64,000 bases of DNA, from NCBI RefSeq assembly GCF_000026545.1, contig NC_011601.1. One strand, given 5' to 3'. Below are positions 8,806-16,453 of this stretch, in pieces (position 1 is the stretch's first letter; each line of letters begins with the position of its first letter). Source of the stretch: Escherichia coli O127:H6 str. E2348/69. GTDB taxonomy: Bacteria; Pseudomonadota; Gammaproteobacteria; Enterobacterales; Enterobacteriaceae. Position numbers and translations under genes: made by a program. The notes under the pieces are model-generated. The model made no database searches. It worked only from the letters and a program-made list of their open reading frames with translations, and had not been told where the DNA came from.

Positions 8806-9413
8806 TTAGCCTCTCCACTTTGAGCCTGCTGAAACAAGGTGAGATCGCCAAAGTCCGTGTTAAAAGTCAGCTCACGCTTACGTTTGCTGACGCGGGCGAT
8901 ATCGGTGTTATCCACCAGATGCAGGGCTTTAGTCGGGCACATCCGCACGCAGGCCGGACCTTGTTCATCAAAGCTACAAAGGTCACATTTGACGGCGATC
9001 GCGCGAATACCTGGCACCCAGTCAAGCAATGTGCTGACACGCGCCGGAGCAGGCGGTGCCGGTGGCGCTTTCGGGGTATTGGCGTTTGCCGGAATATCCA
9101 GCGGACGGCTGCCGGAAAATTCAATTGCGCCAAACGGGCAGGCGATACCACACAGTTTGCAGCTTACGCACAGACTTTCATTCAACTGCACAGCACCATC
9201 AACACGAGTGATGGCGTTAACCGGGCAGACCACCGCGCAGGGTGCATCTTCACAGTGATGACAGAGCTGCGGCGCAGATTCTTTTTCATTTAGCATCACT
9301 CGCAGGCGCGGCATTGATTGCAGGCCGTGCTGGCGATGCGTCTCTGAACAGGCAGCCTCACAAGTGTGGCAGCCGATACAGAGCGTGGAGTCAGCAATTA
9401 CAAAACGATTCAC
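8802..9413 (-). CDS. hycB: Formate hydrogenlyase Fe-S subunit HycB
   Basis: 203-aa ORF with four ferredoxin-type Cys clusters. Confidence 0.95.
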   Translation of the reverse strand: MNRFVIADSTLCIGCHTCEAACSETHRQHGLQSMPRLRVMLNEKESAPQLCHHCEDAPCAVVCPVNAITRVDGAVQLNESLCVSCKLCGIACPFGAIEFSGSRPLDIPANANTPKAPPAPPAPARVSTLLDWVPGIRAIAVKCDLCSFDEQGPACVRMCPTKALHLVDNTDIARVSKRKRELTFNTDFGDLTLFQQAQSGEAK

Positions 9414-9537
9414 CAGGCATTCCTCAGGTGATTGTCATTTTTGACGAAAACATGCCGATGAAATGTCATTTTCGACACTCATCGACACGCCCATCCCCAA
9501 ACAGGCGTAACGCCTGCAAAACGGGCAAAGCCTCAGC

Positions 9538-9999
9538 TCATGCTACCGGGCTTTGTCCCTTTACCAGTTGGCTTAAATTCACCGGCACATTGTTTTCAAT
9601 GGCGGTATATAAGCTGTCGTAAACGCCAGCGATTTTTTCGAGATAGTGTTCCAGAACTTGTTCGCGATCGCGGATGTTGACCTTGCCATCAATCATGCCG
9701 TCAATGCTCAACTGCGCCTGCGCAATCCGCTGTTTGTCTTCGCCATCTTTTGTTTCGACGTAATACTCGATGGTGTGGCTGTTAAAGCCATCCGCCAGGG
9801 TGACGTAAATGCGAAAATGTTCAAAAAGGACGAAACAGAGTTCTTTGTCCGGCGCGCAGCTCATGGCGTGATGCAGGCGCGCTTTCGATAACGTGATCCC
9901 CTGAACCAGCGAATTGCAGTAGATGTGCCACTGGTCCTGTAGGCGACGATGCCGCTGTGCGATGTAATCGGCTTTCTCGCTTATTTCCCAAATAGTCAT
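9538..9999 (-). CDS. hycA: Formate hydrogenlyase regulatory protein HycA
   Basis: 153-aa ORF; first gene of the hyc operon, divergent from hypA. Confidence 0.92.
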   Translation of the reverse strand: MTIWEISEKADYIAQRHRRLQDQWHIYCNSLVQGITLSKARLHHAMSCAPDKELCFVLFEHFRIYVTLADGFNSHTIEYYVETKDGEDKQRIAQAQLSIDGMIDGKVNIRDREQVLEHYLEKIAGVYDSLYTAIENNVPVNLSQLVKGQSPVA

Positions 10000-10036
10000 T
10001 GTCAGGTTACCCGTTTAACAGAGATGCCAGCTTTAA

Positions 10037-10051
10037 GCATTTTCTGTGCCA
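10037..10051 (-). promoter_or_regulatory. Candidate sigma54 (-24/-12) promoter for the hyc operon
   Basis: Reverse complement tggcacagaaaatgc fits TGGCAC-N5-TTGC spacing (GG and GC 10 nt apart). The hyc operon is known to be sigma54/FhlA dependent. Confidence 0.45.
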
Positions 10052-10094
10052 ACTTTTAATTCATTGTTATTAAAGCGATTTCTAAGCTAAAGAT

Positions 10095-10140
10095 GAATTT
10101 CGTCGCCGTGTCGACGTGTCATTTCGACATCATCGACATT
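10095..10140. promoter_or_regulatory. Candidate FhlA upstream activating sequence cluster between hycA and hypA
   Basis: Clustered repeats tgtcgacg / gtcatttcgaca / catcgaca containing CATTTCG-like half-sites, between two divergent sigma54 promoters. Confidence 0.35.
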
Positions 10141-10164
10141 ATTCACCGCAGGGATAATCAACAC

Positions 10165-10181
10165 TGGCACAATTATTGCTT
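10165..10181 (+). promoter_or_regulatory. Candidate sigma54 (-24/-12) promoter for the hyp operon
   Basis: TGGCACaattaTTGCT, about 30 nt upstream of the hypA start codon. Confidence 0.55.
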
Positions 10182-10210
10182 GTAGCTGGCAATAGTTAAT
10201 GGGAGGCGAT

Positions 10211-10561
10211 ATGCACGAAATAACCCTCTGCCAACGGGCACTGGAATTGATCGAACAGCAGGCCGCAAAACACGGCGCAAAACGCGTAACTGGGGTCTGG
10301 CTCAAAATTGGCGCATTTTCTTGTGTCGAAACCAGCTCTCTTGCCTTTTGTTTTGATCTGGTTTGCCGCGGCAGCGTGGCGGAAGGTTGTAAACTGCACC
10401 TCGAAGAACAAGAGGCCGAATGCTGGTGTGAAACATGCCAACAGTATGTGACGCTACTGACCCAGCGCGTCCGCCGCTGTCCACAGTGTCATGGTGACAT
10501 GCTACAGATTGTGGCAGACGACGGTTTACAGATTCGGCGGATAGAAATAGACCAGGAGTGA
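10211..10561 (+). CDS. hypA: Hydrogenase nickel-incorporation protein HypA (116 aa)
   Basis: MHEITLCQRALELIEQQA... with zinc-finger CxxC motifs. Confidence 0.95.
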   Translation: MHEITLCQRALELIEQQAAKHGAKRVTGVWLKIGAFSCVETSSLAFCFDLVCRGSVAEGCKLHLEEQEAECWCETCQQYVTLLTQRVRRCPQCHGDMLQIVADDGLQIRRIEIDQE

Positions 10562-13901: not shown

Positions 13902-15980
13902 ATGTCATATACACCGATGAGTGATCTCGGACAGCAAGGGTTGTTCGACATCACTCGGACACTATTGCAGCAGCCCGATCTGGCCTCGCTGTGTGAGGCT
14001 CTTTCGCAACTGGTAAAGCGTTCTGCGCTCGCCGACAACGCGGCTATTGTGTTGTGGCAAGCGCAGACTCAACGTGCGTCTTATTACGCATCGCGTGAAA
14101 AAGACACCCCCATTAAATATGAAGACGAAACTGTTCTGGCACACGGTCCGGTACGCAGCATTTTGTCGCGCCCTGATACGCTGCATTGCAGTTACGAAGA
14201 ATTTTGTGAAACCTGGCCGCAGCTGGCCACAGGTGGGCTATACCCCAAATTTGGTCACTATTGCCTGATGCCACTGGCGGCGGAAGGGCATATTTTTGGT
14301 GGCTGTGAATTTATTCGTTATGACGATCGCCCCTGGAGCGAAAAAGAGTTCAATCGTCTGCAAACATTTACGCAGATCGTTTCTGTCGTCACCGAACAAA
14401 TCCAGAGCCGCGTCGTTAACAATGTCGACTATGAGTTGTTATGCCGGGAACGCGATAACTTCCGCATCCTGGTCGCCATCACTAACGCGGTGCTTTCCCG
14501 CCTGGATATGGACGAACTGGTCAGCGAAGTCGCCAAAGAAATCCATTACTATTTCGACATTGACGATATCAGCATCGTCTTACGCAGCCACCGTAAAAAC
14601 AAACTCAACATCTACTCCACTCACTATCTTGATAAACAGCATCCCGCTCACGAACAGAGCGAAGTCGATGAAGCCGGAACCCTCACCGAACGCGTCTTCA
14701 AAAGTAAAGAGATGCTGTTGATTAATCTCCACGAGCGGGACGATTTAGCCCCCTATGAACGCATGTTGTTCAACACCTGGGGCAACCAGATTCAAACCTT
14801 GTGCCTGTTACCGCTGATGTCTGGCGACACCATGCTGGGCGTGCTAAAACTGGCGCAATGCGAAGAGAAAGTCTTTACCACTACCAATCTGAATTTACTG
14901 CGCCAGATTGCCGAACGTGTGGCAATCGCTGTCGATAACGCCCTCGCCTATCAGGAAATTCATCGTCTGAAAGAACGGCTGGTTGATGAAAACCTCGCCC
15001 TGACCGAGCAGCTCAACAATGTTGATAGTGAATTTGGCGAGATTATTGGCCGCAGCGAAGCCATGTACAGCGTACTTAAACAAGTGGAAATGGTGGCGCA
15101 AAGTGACAGTACCGTTCTGATCCTCGGTGAAACTGGTACAGGTAAAGAGCTGATTGCCCGCGCGATCCATAATCTCAGTGGGCGTAATAATCGCCGCATG
15201 GTCAAAATGAACTGCGCGGCGATGCCTGCCGGATTGCTGGAGAGCGATCTATTTGGTCATGAGCGCGGGGCTTTTACCGGTGCCAGCGCTCAGCGCATTG
15301 GTCGTTTTGAACTGGCGAATAAAAGCTCACTATTCCTCGATGAAGTGGGCGATATGCCGCTGGAGTTACAGCCGAAGTTGCTGCGTGTATTACAGGAACA
15401 GGAGTTTGAACGTCTCGGCAGCAACAAAATCATTCAGACGGACGTACGTTTAATTGCCGCGACTAACCGCGATCTGAAAAAAATGGTCGCCGACCGAGAG
15501 TTCCGTAGCGATCTCTATTACCGTCTGAACGTATTCCCGATCCACCTGCCGCCACTACGCGAGCGTCCGGAAGATATTCCGCTGCTGGCGAAAGCCTTTA
15601 CCTTCAAAATTGCCCGTCGTCTGGGGCGCAATATCGACAGCATTCCTGCCGAGACGCTGCGCATCCTGAGCAACATGGAATGGCCGGGCAACGTGCGTGA
15701 GCTGGAAAACGTCATTGAGCGCGCGGTATTGCTAACACGCGGCAACGTGCTGCAGCTGTCATTGCCAGATATTGCTTTACCAAAACCTGAAACGCCGCCT
15801 GCCGCAACGGTTGTCGCCCAGGAGGGCGAAGATGAATATCAGTTGATTGTTCGCGTGCTGAAAGAAACAAACGGCGTGGTTGCCGGGCCTAAAGGCGCTG
15901 CGCAACGTCTGGGGCTGAAACGCACGACTCTGCTGTCACGGATGAAGCGACTGGGAATTGATAAATCGGCATTGATTTAA
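13902..15980 (+). CDS. fhlA: Formate hydrogenlyase transcriptional activator FhlA (sigma54-dependent, 692 aa)
   Basis: MSYTPMSDLGQQGLFDITRT..., GAF domains, AAA+ GETGTGKE and GAFTGA motifs, C-terminal HTH. Confidence 0.95.
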   Translation: MSYTPMSDLGQQGLFDITRTLLQQPDLASLCEALSQLVKRSALADNAAIVLWQAQTQRASYYASREKDTPIKYEDETVLAHGPVRSILSRPDTLHCSYEEFCETWPQLATGGLYPKFGHYCLMPLAAEGHIFGGCEFIRYDDRPWSEKEFNRLQTFTQIVSVVTEQIQSRVVNNVDYELLCRERDNFRILVAITNAVLSRLDMDELVSEVAKEIHYYFDIDDISIVLRSHRKNKLNIYSTHYLDKQHPAHEQSEVDEAGTLTERVFKSKEMLLINLHERDDLAPYERMLFNTWGNQIQTLCLLPLMSGDTMLGVLKLAQCEEKVFTTTNLNLLRQIAERVAIAVDNALAYQEIHRLKERLVDENLALTEQLNNVDSEFGEIIGRSEAMYSVLKQVEMVAQSDSTVLILGETGTGKELIARAIHNLSGRNNRRMVKMNCAAMPAGLLESDLFGHERGAFTGASAQRIGRFELANKSSLFLDEVGDMPLELQPKLLRVLQEQEFERLGSNKIIQTDVRLIAATNRDLKKMVADREFRSDLYYRLNVFPIHLPPLRERPEDIPLLAKAFTFKIARRLGRNIDSIPAETLRILSNMEWPGNVRELENVIERAVLLTRGNVLQLSLPDIALPKPETPPAATVVAQEGEDEYQLIVRVLKETNGVVAGPKGAAQRLGLKRTTLLSRMKRLGIDKSALI

Positions 15981-16024: not shown

Positions 16025-16453
16025 ATGGCAGTTTCAGCAAGAAATCAATTAACCGGAACAGTTAGCGCAGTAGCAATGGGCGCTGTGAATGATGAAGTAG
16101 AACTGACGCTGGCAGGTGGTGCAAAGCTGGTGGCAATTGTGACTCACAGCAGCCAGCAAGCGCTGGGTCTGGCGAAAGGGAAAGAAGCGATTGCCCTGAT
16201 TAAAGCCCCGTGGGTAACGCTGGCAACGGAAGACTGTGGACTGAAATTCTCTGCTCGCAACCAGTTTGCTGGCAGCGTGTCGACAATCACCGAAGGCGCA
16301 GTGAACGCCACTGTCCATATCAAAACGGATGCGGGTTTTGAAATTGTGGCAGTGGTAACAAATGAAAGTCAGGATGAAATGAAACTCACCACTGGCTCGC
16401 GCGTTATTGCATTGATCAAAGCATCAGCCATCCTGATTGCCACCAAAGCGTAA
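16025..16453 (+). CDS. Molybdate-binding di-TOBE (Mop-like) protein, 142 aa
   Basis: Two tandem TOBE repeats, each starting SARNQ(L/F)xGxV. AAAGGAGG ribosome-binding site 6 nt upstream; starts 44 bp after the fhlA stop. Confidence 0.8.
   Translation: MAVSARNQLTGTVSAVAMGAVNDEVELTLAGGAKLVAIVTHSSQQALGLAKGKEAIALIKAPWVTLATEDCGLKFSARNQFAGSVSTITEGAVNATVHIKTDAGFEIVAVVTNESQDEMKLTTGSRVIALIKASAILIATKA

Follow-up and report, generated by a model that had tools for sequence, protein, structure and literature searches.

The window analysed here is a 64-kb (64,000-nt) stretch of DNA from Escherichia coli O127:H6 str. E2348/69, in which the divergent genes hycA and hypA are separated by a 211-nt spacer, with the hycA ATG at 9999 and the hypA ATG at 10211. 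The minus strand carries hycI-hycA; the plus strand carries hypA-E and fhlA, after which comes mutS. The preliminary description had named hycA and hypA from the letters of the DNA, and both identities are borne out by the open reading frames and by the RefSeq annotation of identical genomes. The corresponding 401-nt stretch was found in 5,425 of 5,426 complete E. coli genomes, and the annotation there was always hycA/hypA. RefSeq lists fhlA, hycA-I, and hypA-E without pseudogene flags. The genes that concern us most are the following.

9538 to 9999, minus strand: hycA, formate hydrogenlyase regulator (ORF list and RefSeq annotation of 100%-identical genomes)
10211 to 10561, plus strand: hypA coding sequence, first gene of hypABCDE-fhlA (ORF list and RefSeq annotation)
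13902 to 15980, plus strand: fhlA, activator gene for the hycA-hypA region (RefSeq annotation of an identical genome, no pseudogene flag)

The symbol given by RefSeq at 13902-15980 is "flhA", which denotes a flagellar gene; the correct symbol is fhlA. The flanks of the locus are strain specific. Beyond hycI lie an IS200C transposase (113-571), a DUF4259 gene, and a HigB/HigA toxin-antitoxin pair (1243-1970), and on the other side a TOBE-domain open reading frame sits between fhlA and ygbA (16025-16453).

Regulation by sigma-54 and FhlA has had its textbook case in the hyc/hyp control region since about 1990. Since fhlA belongs to the hyp operon and hycA encodes an FhlA antagonist, the region feeds back on itself both positively and negatively. 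We conclude that the 211-nt spacer is almost certainly this classical formate-regulon control region, with divergent sigma-54 promoters, an FhlA enhancer, and an IHF-type site. The preliminary description had called its regulatory content expected biology and not novel, and we agree: the finding is correct, but it is an ordinary one that repeats known biology. Its regulatory picture was correct as far as it went and omitted two elements, the IHF-type site at 10057-10069 and a second enhancer at 9433-9488, which we call UAS2. All of the strings that it quoted are present where it placed them. The value of the result is that of a check, in which a reading made from the sequence proved reliable. 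The regulatory features are listed below; their sequences, ranks, conservation, and geometry are direct observations.

9433 to 9488, no strand assigned: UAS2, predicted FhlA-type enhancer in the hycA-hycB spacer, comprising TGTCATTTTTGACG (9433-9446), TGTCATTTTCGACA (9464-9477), and TCATCGACAC (9479-9488)
10000 to 10025, minus strand: predicted hycA 5' leader, with a predicted start at about 10025, 19 nt downstream of the motif centre at 10044
10036 to 10051, minus strand: hyc sigma-54 promoter TGGCACAGAAAATGCT (-24 GG, -12 GC), rank 2 RpoN matrix match
10057 to 10069, minus strand: IHF-type core TAACAATGAATTA, equal to WATCAANNNNTTR with one mismatch, with an AT-rich flank to about 10090
10096 to 10105, no strand assigned: degenerate distal half-site AATTTCGTCG, assigned from its sequence, with moderate conservation only
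10109 to 10139, no strand assigned: predicted FhlA enhancer core UAS1, comprising TGTCGACG, TGTCATTTCGACA, and TCATCGACAT, assigned from direct repeats, a matrix match, and conservation
10165 to 10180, plus strand: hyp sigma-54 promoter TGGCACAATTATTGCT (TGGCAC-aatta-TTGCT), rank 1 RpoN matrix match
10191 to 10210, plus strand: predicted hypA leader, with a predicted start 20 nt before hypA and the ribosome-binding site GGGAGG at 10201-10206

Conservation was assessed by comparing the hycA locus from 80 Enterobacteriaceae species with this window, giving 81 sequences.

FhlA-type enhancers and the IHF-type site

A cluster of CATTTCG- and TGTCGAC-type repeats between the two promoters had been described earlier and likened to an FhlA upstream activating sequence. 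Both motifs are there, TGTCGAC at 10109 and CATTTCG at 10120, the latter being found four times in the whole window, and a repeat search returned TCGACATCA/TCGACATTA at 10124-10141 and GTCGCCGT/GTCGACGT at 10102-10117. The FhlA reading is supported by the presence of a half-site of the published consensus and by a high matrix score. With an FhlA matrix built from 13 characterised sites (PMC7658346; maximum 16.7 bits), the sequence at 10125-10138 (TGTCGATGATGTCG) scored 15.5 bits and ranked second in the window; because the matrix very probably includes these E. coli sites, such high scores are partly circular. The consensus itself is a 16-nt palindrome, CATTTCGTACGAAATG (Leonhartsberger 2000, as cited in PMC4987338). 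No 16-mer from the repeat region of the spacer was among the matches listed for this full consensus, all of which had six mismatches or fewer, and the repeats contain only the half-site CATTTCG. The cluster of TCGWC/GWCGA motifs at 10098-10142 is the densest in the window (five in 45 nt), a density that 8% of simulations also reached. Across the 81-sequence alignment, 10111-10140 is among the few strongly conserved blocks, with the consensus cGAC.TGTCATTTCGtCa.c.tcGaCAt. The distal half-site at 10096-10105 is found in Escherichia, Salmonella, and some Citrobacter, and is absent in Klebsiella and Kluyvera.

The best FhlA matrix match in the window lies elsewhere, in UAS2, where the site at 9464-9477 (TGTCGAAAATGACA on the minus strand) scored 16.6 of 16.7 bits and its partner at 9433-9446 ranked fifth. 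UAS2 is outside the interval covered by the preliminary description, a short way before the ribosome-binding site of hycB. It is paralogous to UAS1, as can be seen by comparing TGTCATTTTCGACACTCATCGACA with TGTCATTTCGACATCATCGACA in the same orientation, and it is conserved in all 80 species, GTCATTTTTGACG being identical in all of the aligned sequences displayed. Its conservation is at least equal to that of UAS1. The same spacer also contains a perfect hairpin, CAGGCG-TAA-CGCCTG (9502-9516), about 22 nt after the hycA stop and followed on the transcribed strand by TTTGGGG. This hairpin falls within an extra 40-70 nt found only in the Escherichia, Salmonella, and Citrobacter type of hycA-hycB spacer and may act between hycA and hycB as a weak attenuator or to stabilise the RNA.

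The geometry of the two enhancers bears on which promoter each would serve. The UAS1 motifs lie 53-86 nt upstream of the hyc -24 element; measured from the predicted hyc start, UAS1 is about 98 nt upstream. The corresponding motifs of the K-12 hydN and fdhF promoters lie 60-91 and 59-110 nt, respectively, from the -24 T. The UAS1 motifs are only 32-65 nt from the hyp -24 element. Because its spacing toward hyc matches that of hydN and fdhF and its spacing toward hyp is much shorter, UAS1 looks, by geometry, like the hyc enhancer. The pairing that we infer, of UAS1 with hyc and of UAS2 with hyp, takes its second half from papers of the Boeck laboratory of 1994, which reportedly described the hycA-hycB site cluster as serving the hyp promoter from about 700 nt away. 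A different arrangement, in which UAS1 serves both hyc and hyp and UAS2 is auxiliary, seems unlikely to us, if a good deal less so than a different role for the repeats or a chance hyc motif. It draws on the spacing between UAS1 and the hyp -24 element, which is kept at 46-48 or 57-59 nt across genera, values one helical turn apart, suggesting selection on that geometry too. Against it, UAS1 would be unusually close for looping to hyp when the hyc, hydN, and fdhF enhancers lie 53-110 nt away, UAS2 is no less conserved than UAS1, and the 1994 papers reportedly give UAS2 to hyp.

That the repeats at 10096-10139 are not an FhlA enhancer and instead bind another regulator, such as ModE, or form a DNA or RNA hairpin is very improbable. 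The unmatched full consensus would fit such a reading, as would a terminator-like hairpin called at 10101-10116 and the reported effect of ModE, a secondary activator, on hyc expression (PMC2636881, PMC3149613). However, hairpin calls like this one occur at chance frequency, and transcription is not predicted to cover the sequence in question, since the predicted starts on either side of it point away from it. For ModE, a binding site elsewhere, in the AT-rich part of the spacer, is quite conceivable. The same motif family is present at equal distance at the FhlA-dependent hydN and fdhF promoters, and the second-best FhlA matrix match in the window falls within the repeats, both of which argue for FhlA.

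The IHF-type core lies in a conserved block (10054-10082) that adjoins the hyc -24 element. As a string in this strain alone it is at chance level, since WATCAANNNNTTR with one mismatch was found 50 times in the window against 50 expected. At the aligned position, 27 of the 81 sequences have a perfect match and 29 have one mismatch, and the distance from the core to the hyc -24 element is constant at 13-14 nt. IHF has been listed as an activator of the hyc and hyp genes (PMC2636881).

The sigma-54 promoters of hyc and hyp

We scanned both strands of the whole window (~128,000 positions) with an RpoN matrix derived from 186 promoters, as printed in PMC7658346. The hyp site ranked first (18.74 bits) and the hyc site second (15.39 bits), confirming the two -24/-12 elements of the preliminary description, and the GG-N10-GC spacing is correct in both, as had been stated. 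The string TGGCACAGAAAATGC quoted there for hyc, also written tggcacagaaaatgc, is the reverse complement of 10037-10051. The hyp site is the sole exact match to TGGCAC-N5-TTGC in the window, and the hyc site departs from TGGCAC-N5-TTGCW by a single mismatch (ATGC for TTGC) with the spacing correct. A score of at least 18.74 was reached in 4.5% of simulated 64-kb sequences, and 0.87 scores of at least 15.39 are expected per 64-kb window. Allowing one mismatch to TGGCAC-N5-TTGC gave 10 matches in the window, compared to 8.0 expected by chance. On sequence alone, then, only the hyp site stands out, whereas the string at hyc does not reach significance by itself, and in that sense the caution with which it was first reported was reasonable.

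What makes the hyc site convincing is its position and its conservation. By simple arithmetic from the simulated rate, about 0.0014 scores of 15.39 or more would be expected on the correct strand of the 211-nt spacer. None of the 80 other species has lost either -24/-12 element, and the lowest scores among them are 13.7 (hyc) and 15.3 (hyp). The -12 GC of hyc (10037-10038) is 38 nt from the A of the hycA ATG, in keeping with the distance of about 40 nt on which the preliminary description had based its doubt. This distance is 36-39 nt in 81 of 81 sequences, so the value in this strain is the usual, conserved one. At hyp, the -12 GC is 30-36 nt from the hypA ATG in 80 of the 81 sequences and 44 nt from it in the remaining one.

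Published occupancy data point the same way. In PMC4591121, K-12 sigma-54 ChIP-seq peak OS27 at hycA has the motif TTGGCACAAAAAATGCT and a predicted start 26 nt before the gene, and peak OS28 at hypA has the motif CTGGCACAATTATTGCT and a predicted start 20 nt before the gene; both carry the flag "C", which we take to mean previously confirmed. The start-site rule, which counts from the motif centre, and the 26-nt hycA distance used for our leader predictions come from the same source. Transferred to the window, the predicted K-12 starts fall at about 10025 for hyc and 10191 for hyp. The orthologous sites of Salmonella LT2, 114 nt apart, were bound by sigma-54 in ChIP-chip (PMC3844500), and gSELEX gave a peak between hycA and hypA (PMC8743547). 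These in vivo and in vitro data place sigma-54 on the hyc and hyp sites of K-12 and Salmonella and agree with the sigma-54 assignment first made from the sequence. With the -12 to ATG distance conserved throughout and a ChIP-seq predicted start in K-12, the doubt attached to the hyc promoter can be dropped.

That the minus-strand match arose by chance and hyc is transcribed from another promoter is the least probable of the alternatives: the simulated frequency, the chance-level count of one-mismatch matches, and a motif of similar score inside hycA (9915-9930) would allow it, but the site falls within the hycA-hypA spacer with the orientation that hyc requires and at a constant distance from the ATG in all species, sigma-54 occupies it in K-12 and Salmonella, and sigma-70-type promoter signals are not above chance. 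Sigma-70-like promoters and terminators in 9400-10300 were found at chance level only.

The motif inside hycA, TGGCACATCTACTGCA (9915-9930, minus strand), has the third-best score and was considered as an extra sigma-54 promoter. The coding sequence probably produces it incidentally: it falls on the codons for W-H-I-Y-C, and its score elsewhere tracks the amino acids, ranging from 4.7 to 18.8 across species. It was absent among the K-12 high-stringency ChIP-seq table entries examined (PMC4591121).

The repeat search also returned a 27-nt inverted repeat, 78% complementary, that covers both promoters through the start-site region. We considered concerted evolution of the hyc and hyp promoters and rejected it, as similarity downstream of the -12 element was 6.14 of 18 positions within species compared to 6.11 between species (permutation p = 0.44). 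Since similarity within species is no higher than between species, the inverted repeat is merely two consensus promoters facing apart.

A GGAGGCG block before hypA is conserved in the 81-sequence alignment. In the hycA leader and start region (9997-10028; CATTGTCAGGTTACCCGTTTAAC.GAGAT on the plus strand), conservation across the 81 sequences nearly equals that of the promoters, which, from the alignment, would seem to exceed the apparent need of a ribosome-binding site alone.

Spacing across species and a proposed mechanism

The hycA and hypA genes are divergent in all 80 species, and the spacer between them measures 188-223 nt. The distances between its modules fall into discrete classes: 31, 42-44, or 53-54 nt from the IHF site to the enhancer, 20-21 or 33 nt for the enhancer itself, 24-27 or 38-39 nt from the enhancer to the hyp -24 element, and 92, 102-103, or 112-116 nt from promoter to promoter. 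Changes in the spacers between modules come in steps of about 11 nt only, and different lineages arrive at a promoter distance of 114-116 nt via different combinations of spacers. Because all of the length changes are near one helical turn, the modules appear to have kept their helical phase, which is what one would expect if looping depends on the face of the helix; since the sequences are related, the spacing changes represent only a handful of independent events. In the seven Klebsiella/Raoultella sequences, there is a 12-nt insertion inside the enhancer core (TGTCGATGAC...TCATCGACA, corresponding to 10117-10138 of the window). The IHF-side spacer of these sequences is about 10 nt shorter, so that with the compensating insertion the promoter distance stays at 114-115 nt.

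Leonhartsberger et al. are said to have compared a few species in 2000. The present comparison provides a compact map of the constrained bases, and the hint of preserved helical phasing could be of use when promoters are engineered to produce hydrogen or formate.

We propose that sigma-54 RNA polymerase would sit on both promoters as a closed complex unable to start alone. FhlA, encoded at the end of the hyp operon and activated by formate, would bind the TGTC/GACA-type repeats at 10109-10139, and a DNA bend at the IHF-type site (10057-10069) and its AT-rich flank would bring it to the hyc promoter, which ATP hydrolysis by FhlA would then open. UAS2 (9433-9488) would be part of the same control system. 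For E2348/69, we infer the binding of FhlA and IHF, and the exact start sites are likewise predicted. A more speculative extension, which we regard as rather improbable and somewhat more so than the use of UAS1 by both promoters, is that the sliding of the modules by whole helical turns, often with compensating changes, reflects selection on a single three-dimensional arrangement. It could comprise both promoters, IHF, and FhlA on the two paralogous enhancers that flank hycA, perhaps with FhlA bridging these and hycA looped out. If that were true, the region would not be two independent promoter-enhancer pairs.

Comparison with known systems

The zraP and zraSR units, which are neighbours of each other, are divergent and share activator sites between them. 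Both zraP and zraSR (hydHG) have been listed as dependent on sigma-54 and ZraR (PMC3844500). Compared by description only, this pair differs from the hyc/hyp region in its activator (ZraR), its signal (zinc), and its binding motif.

The K-12 hydN-hypF and fdhF promoters are closer relatives. Both are sigma-54 promoters with TGTC/GACA- and TCG(A/T)CA-type repeats upstream, at the distances given above. The 9-mer TGTCGATGA is common to the hydN enhancer and the hyc enhancer (UAS1), and hydN likewise has an AT-rich stretch between enhancer and promoter. Unlike the hyc/hyp region, hydN-hypF and fdhF have single promoters that are not divergent, and they are without a second enhancer inside the operon.

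Salmonella Typhimurium LT2 has the same divergent pair (STM2853, STM2854), with 114 nt between the -24 elements, the same distance as in E2348/69, and both operons gave sigma-54-dependent transcripts in the presence of a constitutively active enhancer-binding protein (PMC3844500). It differs from E. coli in its promoter sequences, TGGCATGGAAAATGCTTA and TGGCATAAATATTGCTTT, and in its enhancer, which has TCGTCA where E. coli has TCGACA.

The region most like that of E2348/69 is the hycA-hypA region of E. coli K-12, which has the same genes in the same order and the same 211-nt spacer length, and which matches it at every base of the hyp promoter, the UAS1 core, the ribosome-binding sites, and the hycA-hycB spacer with its enhancer. 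Adding 2,840,436 to a window position gives the K-12 position in NC_000913.3, where the hycA ATG is at 2,850,435. The two differ at four single bases, 10044, 10062, 10076, and 10082, all C in E2348/69 and T, T, A, and T, respectively, in K-12. Position 10044 is in the unspecified spacer of the hyc promoter, where the matrix score is 15.39 in E2348/69 and 15.05 in K-12, and the other three, within the IHF-type region or beside it, occupy positions that are unspecified or poorly conserved. None of the four falls in a core element, and fhlA, hycA-I, and hypA-E are unflagged, making it fair to call the regulatory architecture intact, as the preliminary description did. The enteropathogenic strain E2348/69 seems to carry a complete formate-hydrogenlyase regulatory unit, with both promoters, both enhancers, the IHF-type site, and fhlA.
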